A stretch of 64,000 bases of DNA from positions 96,001 to 160,000 of the IMG/VR virus record IMGVR_UViG_3300042997_002652; one strand, given 5' to 3'. Positions 5,164-35,904 of the stretch are shown in pieces. Position 1 is the stretch's first letter; each line of letters opens with the position of its first letter. A model generated the notes under the pieces. The model was given only the letters and a program-made list of their open reading frames with translations, was not told the DNA's origin and did not search any database. The stretch is from a virus (taxonomy: Duplodnaviria > Caudoviricetes). Position numbers and translations under genes: made by a program.

Positions 5164-5688
5164 TCAGTATCCAGTAGTACCAGTGTTAGCATGTGGCATA
5201 CCTAATTCAGTAATACTGAATTCTGCTCCAGCGCCGCCACCTGTTGTAAGAAATGCTACTACATTGCCTTGACCACAATAAACACTATTGAAGCTATCGT
5301 TAGCAGAATAAATCTCTGAGTTTTGTGTAGCAATTGCAAACGGGACGCCTGCATTATTGAAAGTGTATACTGTATTTGATAATGCTACTACCGCATTTCC
5401 AGTTAATGTCAAACTAGTAGCGTTAGCAATGTTTGCTACAATACCAACAGTACTTCCTGTTGTGTTGCCTATCCAAGCACCAACGGTAAGTTGCGTACTA
5501 AACGCAGTTCCTACACCAGTAACTGCTGTGGTGTTGGTTGCTGCCGTTGCTGTTCCGGTGCCGGTAACTCTGGGATACCCAGTAACGGCGTGAATACCAA
5601 CGGTGGTAGTTGCTATTCTAATCTTATCCGTAGCAATGTTTGCTGATTGCTGTGATACTAAATTACCTGTATATACATATGATGCCAT
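5164..5688 (-). CDS. Virion structural protein
   Basis: Thr/Ala/Gly-rich ORF in the structural cluster. Its TGTGT..T.V.G.GT.F segment resembles one in the neighbouring gene. Confidence 0.55.
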   Translation of the reverse strand: MASYVYTGNLVSQQSANIATDKIRIATTTVGIHAVTGYPRVTGTGTATAATNTTAVTGVGTAFSTQLTVGAWIGNTTGSTVGIVANIANATSLTLTGNAVVALSNTVYTFNNAGVPFAIATQNSEIYSANDSFNSVYCGQGNVVAFLTTGGGAGAEFSITELGMPHANTGTTGY

Positions 5689-5710
5689 TTTTATTTTCCT
5701 ATTATTTTAT

Positions 5711-7417
5711 TTATGAGTAAGTTGCGCCTACAGTATACCACTGAGTGGCACTTATAGCATAGTACTGTAAACTAGCTGTTGCTATGTGTGTATATGCTGC
5801 ATTTGTTGCTAAAGAGTTAATCGCGGCGCTAGTAGATGGATAAACGTTCAAACTTGTAGCACTTGTATTATTTACAATAATAACCATACCTGCGACCGCT
5901 GTTGGTAATCTAACACCCTGTCCTGCACTAACTGTAGAAACTACATTAATATCTTTTGCTAATGCTGTTGCATCACCCTGTACTGTACCAGCAGCACTAA
6001 TTGCCGTTGCAACACTTCTAATTACATGAGTAGAAGTAGTAATGTTAGCACTAGTAATGTTACCAGTAACAGCAAGTGATGTTAATGTACCAACTGATGT
6101 AACGTTTGGTTGTGCTGCTGTTGTTAAAGTACCGGTTAATAACTGGGCACCAATAGTGCCTGAGTTAGCATAAACGTTACCTGATGTGATATTACCAGTA
6201 ACCGCAAGTGATGTTAAAGTGCCTACTGATGTAACGTTTGGTTGTGCTGCTGTTGTTAATGTACCGGTTAGTAACGAAGCACCTAAGTTACCAACGTTAG
6301 CATTACCAGTTACGGTTAGTGTGCCAGTAATGTTGGCGCCAGTTCCAGTGACGACCAGTATGTTCGCATTACCAACAGCACTAATATTAACATTACCATT
6401 TGCTGCAGGAATATTTACATTTGAATTACCGTTTACTACTGATCCAGAAGTAGCAACATTAAGATTAGCTACTTGGGTAATTGATGTCACTTGTAGCGGG
6501 GGAGTTCCGTTAGCTACGTTTGATAAAAATCTTGAAGCAGTTGCTACGCCGGTAGCATTTAAGTTACCTACATTAGCATTACCGTTAACATATAATAAAC
6601 TACCGTTCCAAGTAAGATCGGTGTCACCATCAAAAGATACACCATCATTATATTGAATAGAATTAGTAGTTCCTCCTACTAATCCTCCACCGCCAGCGGC
6701 ACCTAATGCGGTAGTTGCAATAGCAAGAGAATTAGGAAGATTATCATACTCTAAGCTTCCGTCTATAAATGCATTGGCTAAATCTAACGCATCAGTTAAG
6801 AATAATATTACGTTACCCGAAGTTGGGTAGTCTGTAGCAAGTCTTACGTAGAAAACTTCTGAGTTAACGTTTGCGTTACTGTTTCCTTCTACGCCCGAAA
6901 TAGTTATTTCTAAACCGTTGGAATACGGAGTAGTGGGATCAACTTCCATGATTACAGTATTAGCACCGTAACCGAACGCATTAGCACCATCAGGTGTTAA
7001 ATCTATGATATCAGTAGCAAGTGTACCCTTAGGAGTCCAACTTAAATTTCCCGATCCATCAGTTTGTAGAACATATCCAATAGCACCACCGGTAATTCTA
7101 ACATTAGATACATCACCCAACGTAATTAAACCGCCTGCTGATCCGCCGCGATTGACCCAGTTATTACCATCATATGCTAATACTTGACCGTTGACTACAG
7201 TATTGCTTATATTTAAATTACCAATGGAACCTTCTATCTGACTAAAGTCTATTTCAGAATAAGAAGTTAAAACTTCAATATTTTCGTTGGGGGTTTCTTT
7301 ACCTATGAACAGACGTTTTTCGTCTGATGCCCAGCCGAACTCTGCTTCAGAGAGTTGAGGAAGATCAACTAGGTTGCCTGATCTTTGCTGTTGTTTTGAG
7401 ATTTGTATAATGGCCAT
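5711..7417 (-). CDS. Tail-fibre-like protein with Mtd N-terminal-type domain and GTLTTAAQPNVTSVGTL repeats
   Basis: N-terminus IIQISKQQQRSG..DLPQLSEAEFGWASDEKRLFIG is typical of Mtd_N-like fibre N-termini. Has GNxxAxN beta-repeats and a late motif at 7450-7455. Confidence 0.7.
   Translation of the reverse strand: MAIIQISKQQQRSGNLVDLPQLSEAEFGWASDEKRLFIGKETPNENIEVLTSYSEIDFSQIEGSIGNLNISNTVVNGQVLAYDGNNWVNRGGSAGGLITLGDVSNVRITGGAIGYVLQTDGSGNLSWTPKGTLATDIIDLTPDGANAFGYGANTVIMEVDPTTPYSNGLEITISGVEGNSNANVNSEVFYVRLATDYPTSGNVILFLTDALDLANAFIDGSLEYDNLPNSLAIATTALGAAGGGGLVGGTTNSIQYNDGVSFDGDTDLTWNGSLLYVNGNANVGNLNATGVATASRFLSNVANGTPPLQVTSITQVANLNVATSGSVVNGNSNVNIPAANGNVNISAVGNANILVVTGTGANITGTLTVTGNANVGNLGASLLTGTLTTAAQPNVTSVGTLTSLAVTGNITSGNVYANSGTIGAQLLTGTLTTAAQPNVTSVGTLTSLAVTGNITSANITTSTHVIRSVATAISAAGTVQGDATALAKDINVVSTVSAGQGVRLPTAVAGMVIIVNNTSATSLNVYPSTSAAINSLATNAAYTHIATASLQYYAISATQWYTVGATYS
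6063..6270. repeat. Intragenic direct repeat (two ~76-bp copies, 132 bp apart)
   Basis: 6063-6138 and 6195-6270 both encode LTGTLTTAAQPNVTSVGTLTSLAVTG, with synonymous differences. Confidence 0.9.
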
Positions 7418-7468
7418 AAGATATAACTTTCCATAATAGTGTTATATCTTATTTATCTTTAATACATA

Positions 7469-8167
7469 CTAAACGAACTGAGTGTAGTACTGCTCTAAAC
7501 GTTTGAACCATTCGTTAACATAGTGGTCATACTCTATACCTTCTATAATAAATTCTTGATACTCGTTGTCTTTAGTACACATAAGGATAACTCCCTTGCG
7601 TATGTTAGTGTTAAACATTTCATTATGTGCTGATCCGTATGCAGCTAATTGGATAAAATAATCTTCAATCCATTCACGTTTCTTGGCTTTATTAGCTTGT
7701 TTAAAGTCCATGATAGCTTCTTGATTATCATGAACTCCTGCTAAGTCAGTAGTACCTGCATACATTTCTGGAAAATAAAGACTGGCTTCAGTAGCCCAAA
7801 ATTCATTACATTTAGACAAACCTTGTTCAATAATAGACTGAGCCATTAAATGACTTTGTTGACTATAGGGGTTGGAGCCAGGATCACCGGTAGCACCAAG
7901 CTTTACATAATTCTCTAACCACTTGTGCATACGAGTACCGCGACCAGCAGCTTCGGTAGTTATAGCTTGTGCTTGTTTATGACCTACACGGTTACGCCAG
8001 TTTTGTAATGCTTTTTTTGCTTCTTCAGGTTTAGTAGCGTCTAAAATAGTTGTTACAGAGGGGACAGCGAATCCGTCGGGAGTTATATACTTTCTAGCTC
8101 CGTTTAGCGTTTCTCTTTTTAGTTCTTTATAGTTAAATTTGTTAGGATTGTACATTGGGTTCATCAA
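7469..8167 (-). CDS. PD-(D/E)XK exonuclease (MGME1/lambda-exo/Cas4-like fold, no Fe-S cysteine set)
   Basis: PSVTTIL, YAGTTDL, IMDFKQ and QLAAY motifs. Confidence 0.85.
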   Translation of the reverse strand: MMNPMYNPNKFNYKELKRETLNGARKYITPDGFAVPSVTTILDATKPEEAKKALQNWRNRVGHKQAQAITTEAAGRGTRMHKWLENYVKLGATGDPGSNPYSQQSHLMAQSIIEQGLSKCNEFWATEASLYFPEMYAGTTDLAGVHDNQEAIMDFKQANKAKKREWIEDYFIQLAAYGSAHNEMFNTNIRKGVILMCTKDNEYQEFIIEGIEYDHYVNEWFKRLEQYYTQFV

Positions 8168-8484
8168 ATTGTAAAACTCTCACCACAGCCGCATCGGGCT
8201 TTTTCATTCGGGTTTGTAAATTCAAATCCTTCGTTAAAATCTAATTTCTTATAATCTATTGCTAGACCAGAAACATAGACAAGTGATTTTTCAGTTATAA
8301 AAACAGAAAAGGTTTCAAACTTAAATTCATGATCAGTTGAATCAGCTACATCAACGAATTCTAAGACATAAGAAAATCCACTACATCCTGTGGATTTTAC
8401 ACCTATTCTTATACCGAGGCCTGAACCTCTTTTCTCTAGTTGTGATTTTACTCTGTCTGTCGCAGTATCGGATAATTTAATCAT
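8164..8484 (-). CDS. iscA: A-type Fe-S cluster carrier (IscA/HesB family)
   Basis: TGCSG and CGCGESF motifs, 106 aa. Confidence 0.92.
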   Translation of the reverse strand: MIKLSDTATDRVKSQLEKRGSGLGIRIGVKSTGCSGFSYVLEFVDVADSTDHEFKFETFSVFITEKSLVYVSGLAIDYKKLDFNEGFEFTNPNEKARCGCGESFTI

Positions 8485-8527
8485 AGTGTATTATACAAAA
8501 GAAATAAGAAAGACACAACAAAATAGG

Positions 8528-8857
8528 CTATTTCATTGCGCTTTTAGCCATTTGAGCTACAGTTTTTTCTTGTTCGGATTCTTGATTGGGGTTTTCTGAA
8601 TCATCAGATTGTCCTTTGAAAACAACTTTATCGCCTTGTATATTGGTAATAACTTGTTTTAAAGGAGGAACTTGTATCATGTTGTACAAGTCAGTTACAT
8701 CTAGGATTATATCATATTCTTGAAAATAATCTAATAACTGATCTGTAGTCATACCAAAATTTAATTTGTTATTTTCCAAATCAGTTTTTAGTTGGTCGGT
8801 TACCGCAACAAGTTTTGCGCTAAGACCTGGGTCTGTTTCAAGTTCAAAAAGACGCAT
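8528..8857 (-). CDS. Hypothetical protein, probable head-associated (MRLFELE N-terminus)
   Basis: Intact ORF coupled to its neighbour, with an N-terminus shared in style with other late proteins. Confidence 0.55.
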   Translation of the reverse strand: MRLFELETDPGLSAKLVAVTDQLKTDLENNKLNFGMTTDQLLDYFQEYDIILDVTDLYNMIQVPPLKQVITNIQGDKVVFKGQSDDSENPNQESEQEKTVAQMAKSAMK

Positions 8858-9546
8858 TATCTTTTTGCTCTACCTACTCCGCCTACAGCAGCTTGTTCAG
8901 GTTCTTCAATGTCCAAATCCATGTCAATATCAGCACCGTCATCCATACCAAGATCATCTGCTGGCGCTAATTCATCCATACTTTGATCAGGTGCAGCAAA
9001 TGAATCCATTCCACCTTGACCAGTGATTGTACCTAATGCTCCTTGTAAAGAAGTTTTAGTTGTTAACAAAGCATCATTTAAGGTTTGTAAAGAACTGCTA
9101 GCTTGATCATTGAACTGAGTGCTTTCATTTGCACCAATTTCAGATTGAATGCTGCTTACTAATGCAGGAAGTTCTTTAACCAACATATCGTTAACATCTT
9201 CGTACATCTTTTGTACAGTATCAATCATGTCTTGCGCAGCTAAGATTACTTGTGACTTTTCAACTTCTTCATTTTCAAAAACAATACGAGGACTAGGTCT
9301 GTTAAGTAAATCAATGTAATGAGAATTCAATGCTTGTTCCATGAAAACAAGTTTCATGTAGCTTGGGGAAGTTTGATTTTTATAGAAATCAGCAGCTTGC
9401 TTAGATTCTTTAATAAGTGAAGATACTTTAGTCAACATAGTTTTTGTTTTTATCTTATCCAAAGAGGATACATCAAAGTTGACACTAAAGCTTTCTTTTA
9501 GTGCTGTTTTAGCATAATTCTTGTTTTCTAAGTCATTTAGTTTCAT
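8857..9546 (-). CDS. Probable prohead core/scaffold-type protein with acidic C-terminal tail
   Basis: MKLNDLE start, helical body, acidic DDLGMDDGADIDMDLDIEEPE tail, late motif at 9571-9576. Confidence 0.45.
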   Translation of the reverse strand: MKLNDLENKNYAKTALKESFSVNFDVSSLDKIKTKTMLTKVSSLIKESKQAADFYKNQTSPSYMKLVFMEQALNSHYIDLLNRPSPRIVFENEEVEKSQVILAAQDMIDTVQKMYEDVNDMLVKELPALVSSIQSEIGANESTQFNDQASSSLQTLNDALLTTKTSLQGALGTITGQGGMDSFAAPDQSMDELAPADDLGMDDGADIDMDLDIEEPEQAAVGGVGRAKR

Positions 9547-9566
9547 AATATTGTTCCAATGTTGAT

Positions 9567-10067
9567 TTAGTATTTATCTTTTCTCGCTAGATTAGCAGTG
9601 TTAAACTTTTTAGTTTGCCACTCTTTAGAAATATTTATATATCTATTTAGTTGTTTAAGCAGTATTTTTTTCTTTAAGTTATCTTCTTCTATCTTAGTAA
9701 CATAGATATCGCGGAATTTATCATCTTTAGTACTGTTAAGAATCTTGCTTTTTTGTAATAAGTCTATTTCTAAACTACTTAACTTAAAGTCCAATTGTTC
9801 AATATTCTTACATTCCATTGCTTTTTTCAATTCTTTGAACACGCACCAAGTAACTGCGGTTTTTAAGGTACTGAATATTTTTTCTTGGTCATTATCATCT
9901 ATTAATAATCTATAATGGTTGTCTTTTTTAAGTGCTGCGTATTTTCCAAATAATATATAACTGTTACTATCTATGGGTAATACTATCATGTTCATAGTTT
10001 TATTGTTTTTATCAAGTATTTGGTTTTCTAAAAACTTTTCAACTTTAATCTGTTTGTTTTTCTTCAT
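9567..10067 (-). CDS. Hypothetical protein
   Basis: 166-aa ORF overlapping its upstream neighbour by 4 nt. Confidence 0.6.
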   Translation of the reverse strand: MKKNKQIKVEKFLENQILDKNNKTMNMIVLPIDSNSYILFGKYAALKKDNHYRLLIDDNDQEKIFSTLKTAVTWCVFKELKKAMECKNIEQLDFKLSSLEIDLLQKSKILNSTKDDKFRDIYVTKIEEDNLKKKILLKQLNRYINISKEWQTKKFNTANLARKDKY

Positions 10068-10501
10068 ATAATCTCAAAATGTATATTCTTTAATTCGGGA
10101 CTAATGTTTAAAAATGTAGGTAAGTTACTTATTTCTAAACTGTCTTTTATCATAGGAACATTATCACAATCTGTGTATAACGAACCCAATTCATCTATGC
10201 CATTATCAAAAACGCTTGAATGATGTACTTCAAATTCAAAAGACCAGCAATATACCTTTTCTTTAGACAAGTATAATAATCCAAACTTATTAAATTCACT
10301 TAAGTTTATTTCTAACTTTTGAGGATCTTTTAACAGTTCAGGTTGTGATCGCAATGATATAATCTGTAGTATTGTATCAAAATTACATTGTGTATTTCTA
10401 GATTGCAACCAAGCTGCTACATCATCACTTGGCTTAGTGCGATTAGTCGTGCCGGTTCGTGTGATATTGAATAATGTATAACATCTAATTCTATGTGACA
10501 T
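10064..10501 (-). CDS. Hypothetical protein (start revised to 10501)
   Basis: The track's start at 10519 lies between the terminator and the TAAATA motif at 10507-10512. The ATG at 10501 follows that motif. Confidence 0.55.
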   Translation of the reverse strand: MSHRIRCYTLFNITRTGTTNRTKPSDDVAAWLQSRNTQCNFDTILQIISLRSQPELLKDPQKLEINLSEFNKFGLLYLSKEKVYCWSFEFEVHHSSVFDNGIDELGSLYTDCDNVPMIKDSLEISNLPTFLNISPELKNIHFEII

Positions 10502-10519
10502 AGATATATTTATTGGCAT

Positions 10520-10550
10520 AAAAAAACCCTGAGAAAAACTCAGGGTCTTT
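10520..10550 (-). terminator. Intrinsic terminator after 10573..10962
   Basis: Minus strand ACCCTGAG-TTTTT-CTCAGGGT followed by a T-tract. Confidence 0.85.
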
Positions 10551-10572
10551 TGTGTTGCGATTAACTAATAAA

Positions 10573-10962
10573 TTAGTTTGTGAATGTTGCAGTCGCAGCA
10601 ATAGATACAGCTTCACCGCATGCAGCAGTCAATTCAGCATCAAGTGAACCAGCAGCAGTAGCAGTTACATCGCCCCATGCACCAATTGGGTACATAGCTA
10701 CTGCTAAAGTGTCGTTAGTATCAGTAGTGAACTCATACATGTAAATTGTTGCTAATTGCTGAATAGTATTCACAGCAGCAAGAATCTGTGCACCAGTAGT
10801 ACCGGTACCGGTAAAGGTAATAGTTGCAAACTCAAGCTTTGGGCCCTGTGGCTGAACAGAAGCTGCTGAAGTTACAGTGTTAACACCAGTGTTAGTGTAT
10901 GCTGCGCTGTCTAAGTGTAGAACTGGTTTAAAGTCACCATTGACTCTTGTAAATTGTGCCAT
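10573..10962 (-). CDS. Small, probably abundant virion structural protein
   Basis: Ala/Thr-rich 129 aa, strong AAGGA RBS, own late motif (11008-11013) and terminator. Confidence 0.6.
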   Translation of the reverse strand: MAQFTRVNGDFKPVLHLDSAAYTNTGVNTVTSAASVQPQGPKLEFATITFTGTGTTGAQILAAVNTIQQLATIYMYEFTTDTNDTLAVAMYPIGAWGDVTATAAGSLDAELTAACGEAVSIAATATFTN

Positions 10963-11047
10963 TTTAAATATCCTTTAAATGTTTTGAAGCCTACTGCTCC
11001 ATACAAATATTTATGCCAAATAGAAAAAAATGCTGGTTTAGGATATA

Positions 11048-12901
11048 TTATTTGTTAAAATGGGCAGCTCCAAAACGCTGTCTGTCTACTATTTTAACTA
11101 AACCTGAATCAGTAGGAAATACGAATCCTTCTCCGCCTTTTTGCCCACCTGACGACTGTTCAAAGCCTTGAACTTGGTTTTCAAGTTGATTGGATACATT
11201 AACTTTTAGTTTGTATATTGCATTCCACACTTTGACAAGAGCATTCAATCCTTCTGCGTTTTGCTGTAAATAACCAGTACCGTCAGTTCCTACTAAGAAG
11301 TTATACTGTGATTTACTGATATTTTGAGATAACCATGGTACTAACTTATCGTTAGTTTGCTTGGTTATTTTATGATTCATGTATTTCTTTAATGCTTCAC
11401 GCGCAACGCTACTAAGTCCGCTTAAAAAGTCGTCTATAACTTTACTGTTTGTTGATAACACGCTTTCAGCATCATTAATTAGTTTAGCAGGAGGCTTAAT
11501 ATTGAATGTAACTCCGGCAGAAGCAGGTATCAAAGCTACATTAGATTTATTCATTGCTGGCTCACCGCGCCATGGTTTGTTATCAAACTCGTGAACGATT
11601 AAGAAGCCTACTTTTCCTTGAAGTTGTTTACCAAGATCAGACTCAACTGGTATGCGATACTCTACAGTAACCGGTTTAAACACAAAGTATCCGTTTTGTG
11701 GTTTGGGATTAATAGCCATTAAATCACTTTTAAATAAACCAGTAGTTCCAGATACAGCTTGCTTTAGTCCGGGCCATAATAAATCAATCTTTTCGTATAA
11801 GTCGTTTCTATTTGCGCCGCGCTGTTGATCATATTCAACCCATTCTTCGGGGCTAGTAGGATACACACCTTTGTTTGGCATGTACTTGTCAGTAACAACA
11901 AATCTACCGTCAGGTAAGTTACCAAAGTATAATGCTATCCCGCCGTCCCATTTAATACTACCAGATTCTGGACTACTAATAGCTTGTTTGAGTGCATTTA
12001 AATATTGTTTTGCACTGTCGCCACCGTCAAAAATAGCATCTTCAGGATGAGGTATTCTAGGTCCTTTAGCTTCTTCAGTAATAAAAGAATTTTCTACAAC
12101 TAAATTTCTAAACTTTGTTATGATATCGTATGCGCTTTCGTTAGCAGTATCGTTAAACTTGGGAGGTGTTATGCCACTTCTTGCTGCATATTCTTCAAAG
12201 TCTTTTAATTTTTGTTGTTTGTTGGGATCATTTTTTAGTTTCTTATAGATGTTTTCTACTGAACTCATATCATCAAGTGTACCATCTTTACCAAACAACA
12301 GTTTAGTAGCTACTTCTGGATCTAGTGTTACTAGTTCTCCGGTAGCTCTGTCAACTACGCCTTTGCCACTCAAACGCAATCCTTGAGGATGTTCACTAGT
12401 GATCGTGCCTTTAGCTACGCTGTTTAATGCTACTTCTCTAAATACACCTTTGTATTCGCTAGGGCTTCTCATACCTCCGCTAAGCAACCATGTTTCCCAT
12501 TCAAGATTGTTTAAAAACATAAAATCTGTTTGAACAAACCCTTTTTCAAAATTGCCTTCTATTGGTGTTGCAAAGTGTACAGATATACCAGACTTTTTTA
12601 CAAAGTCTTTTGGATCAAGATTATTTTGCGTAGCCCATGATTTTAGTTTGCTTTCTAGCTCTGCTTTACTTACTTCATTCGCATTTACTGCTAAGTCTAG
12701 ATCACCGCTAGTAGATTTTCTACCAGTAGAACCCAACCATTTAGCGGGTAAACCATCTTTAGCTTTTTCTTTAGTTAAATCTAATCCAGTAATACTTTCT
12801 AACCAATTAATAGTAGGCGCAACTTCATTCTGATTTATACGTCTAGTTAGCTCAGTACCGTCTTGTTGTTTAAAGATGTTTCCGCCTTCAGATATAAACA
12901 C
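11048..12901 (-). CDS. Two-domain protein: Pol-beta-superfamily nucleotidyltransferase fused to a ligase-like (KxDG) adenylation domain
   Basis: LGSTGRKSTSGDLDLAV and VQTDFMF in the N-half. SIKWDG, KSDLM, GEGFVF and LVKIVDR in the C-half. Confidence 0.65.
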   Translation of the reverse strand: MFISEGGNIFKQQDGTELTRRINQNEVAPTINWLESITGLDLTKEKAKDGLPAKWLGSTGRKSTSGDLDLAVNANEVSKAELESKLKSWATQNNLDPKDFVKKSGISVHFATPIEGNFEKGFVQTDFMFLNNLEWETWLLSGGMRSPSEYKGVFREVALNSVAKGTITSEHPQGLRLSGKGVVDRATGELVTLDPEVATKLLFGKDGTLDDMSSVENIYKKLKNDPNKQQKLKDFEEYAARSGITPPKFNDTANESAYDIITKFRNLVVENSFITEEAKGPRIPHPEDAIFDGGDSAKQYLNALKQAISSPESGSIKWDGGIALYFGNLPDGRFVVTDKYMPNKGVYPTSPEEWVEYDQQRGANRNDLYEKIDLLWPGLKQAVSGTTGLFKSDLMAINPKPQNGYFVFKPVTVEYRIPVESDLGKQLQGKVGFLIVHEFDNKPWRGEPAMNKSNVALIPASAGVTFNIKPPAKLINDAESVLSTNSKVIDDFLSGLSSVAREALKKYMNHKITKQTNDKLVPWLSQNISKSQYNFLVGTDGTGYLQQNAEGLNALVKVWNAIYKLKVNVSNQLENQVQGFEQSSGGQKGGEGFVFPTDSGLVKIVDRQRFGAAHFNK

Positions 12902-12925
12902 TATTATCTACTTCCTTATTAAATT

Positions 12926-13174
12926 TTAATTGTCTTCATCTTTTTTTCTTAAAGACTTAGAAAATCTTTCTTGGTCTCGACCCTTAATAGCACTTAGCAG
13001 TTTTCTTTCTAGTAGCTCAGCTTTTTCAGAGGAATAATGCTTTTTCATCAATTCTAACAGATTGATAGCACTTGAAATAACGTTGTTAGCACGGTTTTCA
13101 ATAAGAAGATTAACATCCTTATTGTTGCCTATACTTTCTAGTTCTTCTAAGAGACTGCGCGTTTTTTTCTGCAT
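12926..13174 (-). CDS. Hypothetical protein
   Basis: 82-aa ORF after the late motif at 13192-13197. Confidence 0.55.
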   Translation of the reverse strand: MQKKTRSLLEELESIGNNKDVNLLIENRANNVISSAINLLELMKKHYSSEKAELLERKLLSAIKGRDQERFSKSLRKKDEDN

Positions 13175-13204
13175 AGCAATAACCTTTATTATATTTATCT
13201 TAGA

Positions 13205-35249: not shown

Positions 35250-35483
35250 TTAGCTACTGAACCCAGTAAAGTTACCTATGCCATCATGATTCAACTTGGT
35301 ATTTTCGCCGTCACTGTCAAAGTATACAATCTGTTTTGTCCCGGTTGCTTGGCCTGACTTAAACAAATACTTGACTACGGCTTCAGCATCATTAGTAATC
35401 GTTTTGTAAGTATCCCAGGGACCTAGATCCCTAAGAACGATTACTTCAGATGAGTTGGACAGGATAGTAAAATTAGCATTCAT
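35250..35483 (-). CDS. Hypothetical protein (start revised to MNANF at 35483)
   Basis: The longer track ORF overlaps the kinase. The ATG at 35483 gives normal coupling. TITNDAEAVV...YFDSDG motif. Confidence 0.55.
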   Translation of the reverse strand: MNANFTILSNSSEVIVLRDLGPWDTYKTITNDAEAVVKYLFKSGQATGTKQIVYFDSDGENTKLNHDGIGNFTGFSS

Positions 35484-35904
35484 TGTTTGCCTCGAAAAGT
35501 TCCTGAATATCATACTGAAAACGGTTGCGCATCTGCTCCAGCTTTTCAGCAGGTACATTATGCACATTAGGAAACTGATTCTGAGCCAAGTATACAACTG
35601 GCACAATAAAAAACTCTTTTGCAAGGTTGAAGTAAGGCTTCAGTTCGCGCTTAGTAGTAAAAGTATTGCTTACTATTACAGTGCGATTCTCTTCCAAAGC
35701 TTCACGAGTTTTACGTAAACACCAACCATGTGCTAAGACCAGTCGCTCGGCATCAAAGTTGTAGTTACCCTGAGCATCCTCAAAGTACATATCGGCTTCG
35801 TAGTGTCTTGCCATTACGTTGTCTAGCAGATTGCACAAGTTTCTAGCAAGGGTAGTCTTACCCGAGCCGGGGATGCCGCGAACCAAAATAAGATTTTTCA
35901 TCAT
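35473..35904 (-). CDS. P-loop kinase (AAA_33 / polynucleotide-kinase-like)
   Basis: LVRGIPGSGKTT, EADMYF and VIVSNTF motifs. Confidence 0.85.
   Translation of the reverse strand: MMKNLILVRGIPGSGKTTLARNLCNLLDNVMARHYEADMYFEDAQGNYNFDAERLVLAHGWCLRKTREALEENRTVIVSNTFTTKRELKPYFNLAKEFFIVPVVYLAQNQFPNVHNVPAEKLEQMRNRFQYDIQELFEANNEC

Follow-up and report, generated by a model that had tools for sequence, protein, structure and literature searches.

We found that a gene in a 64,000-nucleotide stretch of viral DNA (IMG/VR virus record IMGVR_UViG_3300042997_002652, positions 96,001 to 160,000; hereafter the window) encodes a protein with two enzyme-like halves. The N-terminal half resembles family-X DNA polymerases, and the C-terminal half, the Pfam family DUF6267, resembles ATP-dependent ligases. 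The record is from a T4-like jumbo phage (267 kb, about 76% complete). We infer that the chemistry is nucleotide addition followed by sealing, and the best explanation as a whole is a bifunctional enzyme that fills and seals breaks, a reading to which we give about an even chance. An earlier note on this DNA, written from the letters alone, had described a Pol-beta-type nucleotidyltransferase joined to a ligase-like half. The motifs that it named in the two halves (GS..GDLD, QTDF, KWDG, EGFV and VKIV) are all in place (Table 1).

The N-terminal half is predicted to fold as a small family-X-like polymerase. Each half was folded separately from its own alignment, and the N-half model had a predicted local distance difference test score (pLDDT) of 92.6. 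When this model was compared with the PDB using Foldseek, all 50 matches listed were family-X DNA polymerases (E ~3e-3, probability ~1.0), including Thermus PolX, pol lambda, mu and beta, and TdT. Over residues ~20-150 the palm aligns with PolX, TUTase, CD-NTase and CCA-adding enzymes, and it is followed in the model by a thumb subdomain, the part that binds the nascent base pair. The signature of the Pol-beta superfamily, hG[GS]-x9-13-Dh[DE]h plus a third carboxylate, is present as G57-S58-x8-D67-L-D69 and D126. ESM Atlas leads for this half were NTP_transf_2 and DNA_pol_B_palm, with a lead of 0.83 to a cluster in which 17% of the members carry PF14792. The predicted fold thus agrees with the Pol-beta-type assignment in the earlier note and narrows it to a family-X-like palm and thumb.

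Because the domain starts at residue 6 and the alignment at the palm, there is no room for the 8-kDa deoxyribose phosphate (dRP)-lyase domain or the helix-hairpin-helix fingers domain, both of which are absent from the model. There was no match in the N-half to the Pfam PolX models (DNA_pol_B_palm and thumb), nor to any Pfam family within residues 1-283 at an E-value of 1 or below. Judging from the model, the N-half is best described as a minimal PolX-like enzyme that would work like Pol X of African swine fever virus (ASFV), and not as a canonical member of the family. ASFV Pol X is likewise minimal, with palm and thumb, and has no detectable sequence similarity to the phage domain.

The C-terminal half is predicted to have a ligase-like fold. 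The model had a pLDDT of 92.0, and residues 262-279, a disordered stretch of the linker, were below 50. We assigned the fold from VIA-align enrichment together with motifs. The nearest solved folds were ATP-dependent RNA and DNA ligases, with modest individual scores, and ligases, not capping enzymes, dominated the structural neighbors. The model has the adenylyltransferase fold, and the same fold was found in BFVD in cyanophage "cytidyltransferase-like" proteins and in phage PA5oct. The ESM Atlas lead was PF09414. Motif IV (E591-G) and motif V (K603, R607) are readily recognized and invariant. Candidates for motif III (D393, in G-D-L-M) and motif IIIa (Y415) are in the correct order and on strands, with Asp replacing the usual Glu. 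Because the enrichment, the motif order KxDG...EG...K and the invariance of these residues combine, we consider the assignment to the ligase superfamily to be sound. The ligase-like character claimed in the earlier note is supported by the nearest folds and the invariant K317; a Foldseek search of the PDB with this half gave nothing significant (best E 0.19).

The C-half differs from familiar ligases in its modules. Only 14 residues follow motif V, and there is no C-terminal oligonucleotide/oligosaccharide-binding (OB) fold. The extra module is helical and separates the motif III/IIIa region from motif IV. There was no match in the protein to PF01068, and none in the protein or the genome to the Rnl2-like family PF09414 or to Rnl1 (PF09511). 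Based on the model, DUF6267 may be a divergent clade of polynucleotide ligases that lacks the OB domain and carries an internal helical insert.

The predicted catalytic residues are nearly invariant in both families. In alignments to profile hidden Markov models (HMMs) of all fetched homologues, the N-half residues D67 (299/301), D69 (300/301), D126 (301/302) and Q124 (302/302) were kept. Among C-half residues, K317, D319 and G320 of motif I were each present in 205 of 205 proteins, H285 in 203 of 205, K566 in 200 of 201, E591 in 199 of 201 and K603 in 201 of 201. The motif set is not due to chance. Conservation of the catalytic Lys and Asp residues, which the earlier note had named as a check on its proposal, extends across ~300 N domains and ~200 C domains.

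Both families are large and had escaped annotation. DUF6267 (PF19782) matched residues 284-616 with 79.5 bits (gathering cut-off 27). PHROGs gave a match only to phrog_455, "unknown function", a search of NCBIfam with the protein gave nothing, and searches of PDB sequences with the single sequence and with profiles of both domains gave no useful match. DUF6267 has no published function, and a full-text literature search found no paper naming the family. More than 1,800 protein clusters matched at E <=1e-3 among 8,000 candidates scored, with 820 representatives matched in a 50%-identity library, and the proposed fill-and-seal pair is widespread in aquatic phages. Under the polymerase-ligase reading, two large families of unannotated phage proteins gain testable functions.

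The two domains are obligatorily paired. We counted architectures with profile HMMs of both halves over all fetched homologues and found N alone in 162 proteins, C alone in 77, N-C in 81 and C-N in 6, plus the longer forms N-C-X (15), X-N-C (8), C-N-X (7) and a few others. Separate proteins that are also fused in both orders are a classic sign of functional partnership. In 80 related viral loci, N was upstream of C on the same strand, either within one gene, as an overlapping gene or at a distance of 1-3 kb. N was lacking only from five loci in which C lies <2 kb from the start of the contig, so that the two domains are together in every related viral locus in which this can be checked. Some loci (L005, L007, L009, L011 and L048) have a C-N-C arrangement, in which a second, divergent DUF6267 paralogue of ~400 amino acids, with the motif H-I-E-H-L-E-D and a leader beginning MKLFE, is upstream of the N gene.

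A related pairing is found outside this group. Two rhizobial jumbo phages, Atu_ph07 and Phosso, have an N homologue whose gene overlaps another that carries an EKLDG motif and weakly matches PF09414 (RNA_ligase), and the pair is directly after the helicase gene. An hhalign comparison of the DUF6267 profile with these two PF09414-like partners was not significant; in Phosso, SIKWDG was aligned to SEKLDG.

The logic of a nucleotidyltransferase working with a ligase is already known from RlaP and Rnl, from LigD, and from Pol X and the ligase of ASFV. The earlier note knew of no characterized enzyme with this pairing; the two families are indeed uncharacterized, but analogues of the pair exist. 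RlaP (PF10127), of bacterial and jumbo-phage RNA repair, is likewise a Pol-beta nucleotidyltransferase that is genetically coupled to a lysine-adenylate ligase, and the logic proposed here, restoring nucleotides and then sealing, is the same. In contrast to RlaP, the phage N-half is closest to family-X polymerases with a thumb, the ligase is DUF6267 and not Rnl1, Rnl2 or RtcB, and the two are often fused, in either order. We rejected membership of the N-half in the RlaP family, since it has no match to PF10127. LigD, of bacterial nonhomologous end joining, likewise combines a gap-filling or tailing polymerase with an ATP-dependent ligase in one polypeptide. In LigD, the polymerase incorporates ribonucleotides and the ligase favors nicks with a 3'-ribonucleotide. 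Unlike the phage protein, LigD has a polymerase with the archaeo-eukaryotic primase fold and a ligase with an OB domain that belongs to PF01068, and no Ku partner was seen here. Pol X and the ligase of ASFV act in base-excision repair, and the phage ligase has neither an OB nor a DNA-binding domain. The two ASFV enzymes are not known to be fused or adjacent, unlike the phage pair. Compared with the nick-sealing RNA ligases T4 Rnl2 and Naegleria NgrRnl, the phage ligase has no sequence match, its helical module is inside the core and not appended, its candidate motif III holds Asp, and its motif V has one Lys and a conserved Arg. What is new is a minimal PolX-like phage family that had not been modelled, the reading of DUF6267 as an OB-less ligase clade, permuted fusions of the two, and signatures of T4-type targeting and cleavage.

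We propose the following mechanism. Residues 6-216 would rely on D67, D69, D126 and two metal ions for extending a 3'-OH, probably at a gap, by one or a few nucleotides. K317 would take AMP, presumably from ATP, and pass it to a 5'-phosphate, after which the nick would be sealed; the ~100-residue helical insert probably holds the nucleic acid. The protein would be expressed late, together with the upstream 82-residue gene c2, and loaded into the prohead, where the gp21-type protease would cut it after E5 and E276. The two enzymes so released would then enter the cell with the phage DNA.

The support for the cleavage into two enzymes in the head that the earlier note had suggested is circumstantial and comes from a protease gene, sites at domain borders, leaders, a promoter-like motif and mass spectrometry (MS) of a partner. 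A gp21-type prohead protease is encoded in the genome (Peptidase_S77, E 2e-28), adjoining a homologue of gp23, the T4-type major capsid protein. Strict [LI]-x-E sites, the gp21 type, occur three times in the protein, and two of them bracket the N domain (I-S-E5/G and I-T-E276/E). The MFISE beginning and the NES and ITE linker sites that the earlier note had pointed out are indeed present (E5/GGN, A-N-E255/S and I-T-E276/E). In fused homologues, h-x-E stands directly before GGN in 68 of 70 proteins and within <=30 residues before the HPED motif in 70 of 70. An amphipathic helix in the linker, flanked by the E255 and E276 sites, resembles a capsid-targeting sequence.

The leaders of stand-alone relatives resemble those of T4 internal proteins. 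Stand-alone DUF6267 proteins start with MKRFVEYLAE/A, MKQFYEYLVE/A or MKLDFLDYIFE/A, and T4 IPII and IPIII start with MKTYQEFIAE/A. In the 10-residue capsid-targeting sequence of T4, targeting needs residues 4 and 7 and processing needs residues 8 and 10 (PMC9026906). The DUF6267 leaders are similar to those of T4 IPI-III and Alt in having 10-11 residues, with aromatics at ~4 and 7, Leu or Ile at 8 and Glu at 10, followed by Ala, and the phage likewise has a gp21-type protease gene and I-x-E sites at domain borders. A leader pattern of this kind, which we defined after seeing the data, was present in 11 of 38 stand-alone C proteins, 10 of 33 genes of a variable cassette (described below) and 6 of 38 c6 proteins, compared to 2 of ~590 other unique proteins of the same loci. 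The protein encoded beside DUF6267 in cyanophage S-SZBM1, of the CTP_transf_like family, starts with MRFRQFIIE/A; this protein and the product of the next gene (139) were detected by MS in purified virions (PMC9146016).

The positions of ATAAATA motifs suggest T4-type late promoters just upstream of genes in the block. The motif matches the cyanophage and T4 late promoters (NATAAATA/TATAAATA; PMC2984593) and is found 24-52 nucleotides upstream of c2, c7, c4, c12 and one more gene of the block. None was found ahead of the replication genes, and the promoter of the primase is instead sigma-70-like and TG-extended. ATAAATA was not enriched in the window overall (28 found, 33.6 expected), nor was the exact T4 late promoter TATAAATA (5 found, 10 expected). 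The gene c2, present in 60 of 80 related loci, is 24 nucleotides from the open reading frame (ORF), and the two are probably co-transcribed.

Several observations weigh against packaging, cleavage or the ligase assignment. The N-terminal leader of the fusion is only five residues (M-F-I-S-E), too short for a T4-type capsid-targeting sequence of ~10 residues; compared with T4 IPI-III and Alt, the targeting-like helix is internal. Each of E5, G6, G7 and N8 occurs in about 93-95% of 303 N domains, and E-G-G-N is also kept inside longer proteins, so it may be structural and not a cleavage site. Depletion of [LI]xE inside domains was mixed, being clear in one set (ratio 0.43) and weak in another (0.63-0.76, compared to 0.8-1.0 for replication proteins), and we did not rely on it. 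The cyanophage DUF6267 proteins lack a leader, and DUF6267 itself is absent from the protein list of S-SZBM1 virions (PMC9146016). The equivalence of K317 to the ligase lysine is suggested by the motif alone. Taking all of this together, we judge that the protein may be packaged in the head, with the arguments for and against in rough balance.

The substrate of the proposed enzyme could be DNA or RNA. It would most likely be a nicked or gapped duplex of the incoming genome, possibly patched with ribonucleotides, with cleaved RNA a close second. The PolX fold with its thumb and possible co-packaging with DNA favor DNA, which we give roughly half of our credence; RNA is a serious candidate, short of that, and a substrate other than these is improbable. 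RNA is favored because RNA ligases slightly outscored DNA ligases among the structural neighbors and because there is no OB domain, both of which count against DNA. Also favoring RNA are the PF09414-like partner in the rhizobial phages, the separate DNA ligase in the genome, and the precedent of RlaP with RNA ligase (PMC7824862; bioRxiv 10.64898/2025.12.29.696909). DNA repair with ribonucleotide patches, as by LigD, would reconcile the two lines of evidence. One alternative is an RNA repair module like that of RlaP and RNA ligase, in which the nucleotidyltransferase would restore 1-2 nucleotides on tRNA or other RNA cut by host anticodon nucleases and DUF6267 would reseal it. We regard this alternative as possible, though not probable. 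The genome itself has no PF09414, PF09511 or RlaP genes.

An alternative is that the protein stays in the cytoplasm as a lagging-strand or gap-repair accessory of the replisome, in which the PolX-like half fills the gaps that removed primers leave and DUF6267 seals them, supplying the missing ligase of cyanophages. The gene always follows closely on those for the primase and DnaB-type helicase and precedes an exonuclease gene. In the Kyanoviridae S-PM2, S-SZBM1 and Melnitz (loci L087, L089 and L091), DUF6267 is between the helicase and primase genes and is the only ligase-like gene, as these genomes have no PF01068 or PF01653 ligase. Consistent with this, cyanomyoviruses have been reviewed as lacking a homologue of gp30 (PMC2984593). 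However, the phage described here and seven of eight large related contigs, including all three that are near-complete, already encode a canonical ATP-dependent DNA ligase (PF01068), and none of these has an NAD+-dependent ligase. We therefore conclude that the fusion is not the replicative ligase, and we rejected that role for this clade. Furthermore, the interval between helicase and exonuclease has late-promoter-like motifs, leaders resembling capsid-targeting sequences, and PHROGs annotated "virion structural protein", and no PolX-like partner was found beside the cyanophage DUF6267. Taken together, these findings make a replisome accessory improbable.

The cyanophage DUF6267 is instead paired or fused with a nucleotidyltransferase of the CTP_transf_like (HxGH) family. 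Our guess is that the link between CTP_transf_like and a ligase-like enzyme might perhaps reflect synthesis of a cofactor of the NAD+ type.

We considered whether the pair might act on small molecules or proteins in nucleotide- or NAD-centered counter-defense, by making, capping or destroying a signal or by AMPylation. The 39 long forms carry extra domains that include CTP_transf_like (12/39), DUF5661, NT5C, ART-PolyVal, Amidoligase_2, one Tad3 and one sigma-70 region 4. These resemble mixed polyprotein cargo in the "polyvalent" manner, and injected polyvalent proteins have been described (PMC7824862); the domains therefore need not share a pathway, which counts against such a function. In addition, the PolX matches are far stronger than those to CD-NTase and include the thumb, and the prevalence of ligases over capping enzymes around the C-half also argues against it. 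We consider this function quite unlikely. Least credible is a reading in which the protein has lost its enzyme activities and keeps the folds only as a structural or scaffold-associated component of the head: its neighbors are virion-type and it has no sequence match to a family with proven activity, but catalytic residues nearly invariant across hundreds of diverged homologues are not expected of a pseudo-enzyme.

Returning to the fill-and-seal enzyme, we tentatively propose, as a possibility that we would not call probable, that T4-like aquatic phages pack a kit of a minimal PolX and an OB-less ligase that is released by the protease, is injected, and mends the incoming genome before phage genes are expressed, perhaps with ribonucleotide patches, and that DUF6267 is the missing ligase of cyanophages. 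With the ligase reading, the known enzymes of nucleic-acid repair would gain a new, compact pair of polymerase and ligase. Delivery with the virion, if true, would be relevant to phage survival of DNA damage in the environment and of host defenses that nick or cleave. It would also, to our knowledge, be the first case in which a polymerase and a ligase for repair are injected together with phage DNA. DUF6267 is very common, including in T4-like cyanophages without a recognized ligase (PMC2984593).

The start codon of the gene was assigned to the GTG at 12899-12901 (-) because there is an in-frame TAG three codons upstream. The features of the gene and its surroundings are listed in Table 1.

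Table 1. Features of the fusion gene and its surroundings, in window positions; a slash marks a putative cleavage site.
Feature	Position	Strand	Remarks
Whole ORF, 617 amino acids plus stop (P0001)	11048..12901	(-)	Pfam DUF6267 on residues 284-616, E 4e-22
Ribosome-binding site AAGGAAG	12911..12917	(-)	9-nucleotide spacer to GTG start
Start codon and leader M-F-I-S-E5, then G6-G7-N8 (I-x-E site)	12887..12901	(-)	
Family-X-polymerase-like nucleotidyltransferase domain (predicted), residues 6-216 (palm and thumb)	12254..12886	(-)	
G57-S58...S65-G66-D67-L-D69, nucleotide- and metal-binding motif	12695..12733	(-)	
Q124-T-D126-F, third catalytic Asp	12521..12532	(-)	Q124 302/302, D126 301/302
Helical tail and linker, residues 217-279, with A-N-E255/S and I-T-E276/E	12065..12253	(-)	
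DUF6267 ligase-like (covalent nucleotidyltransferase) domain, residues 280-617	11051..12064	(-)	
H285-P-E-D288 motif, upstream of motif I	12038..12049	(-)	H285 203/205
Motif I, K317-W-D-G320	11942..11953	(-)	K317 is the predicted AMP acceptor
Helical insert of ~100 amino acids, residues 472-574, invariant K566	11180..11488	(-)	Model secondary structure and conservation
Motif IV, E591-G-F-V, and motif V, V602-K603-I-V-D-R607	11087..11131	(-)	
Upstream c2 gene, 82 amino acids	12926..13174	(-)	phrog_11854 "virion structural protein", E 4e-16
ATAAATA late-promoter-like motif before c2	13192..13198	(-)	24 nucleotides before c2 start
Further ATAAATA motifs	11008-11014, 9571-9577, 7450-7456, 5708-5714	(-)	

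The gene belongs to a block whose synteny is kept in most of the 80 related viral loci, in the order primase, DnaB-type helicase, c2, variable genes, N, C, c7, c1, c8, c11, c3, c4, c6, exonuclease and c12. The small genes c2, c7, c1, c8, c11, c3, c4 and c6, of unknown function, form a conserved block (window 5164-13174 (-); loci L004-L083). Relatives also have a variable cassette immediately ahead of the N gene. It encodes proteins without a Pfam match, many of which start with leaders of the type MKINE(I/V)xxE that resemble the T4 capsid-targeting sequence. The cassette looks like a locus into which head-delivered cargo is swapped.

Two of the small genes are candidates for scaffold or internal head proteins. 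c6 (109 amino acids; 8528-8857 (-)) starts with MRLFELE, and c4 (229 amino acids; 8857-9546 (-)) starts with MKLNDLE and has both a very acidic C-terminus and a match to phrog_14154, "virion structural protein". c7 (129 amino acids; 10573-10962 (-)) is rich in Thr, Ala and Gly, has its own late-promoter-like motif and has no family match. It is followed by a strong hairpin (10526-10546) and a T-run, a layout typical of a very abundant virion protein.

An exonuclease gene (7469-8167 (-)) is of the PD-(D/E)XK type (phrog_298), and its start is overlapped by a gene for Fe-S assembly of the IscA/HesB type (8164-8484 (-)), an unusual coupling. A small AAA_33 P-loop kinase-like ORF (35473-35904 (-), E 3e-13), which is not linked to the fusion gene, may encode a nucleotide or polynucleotide kinase.

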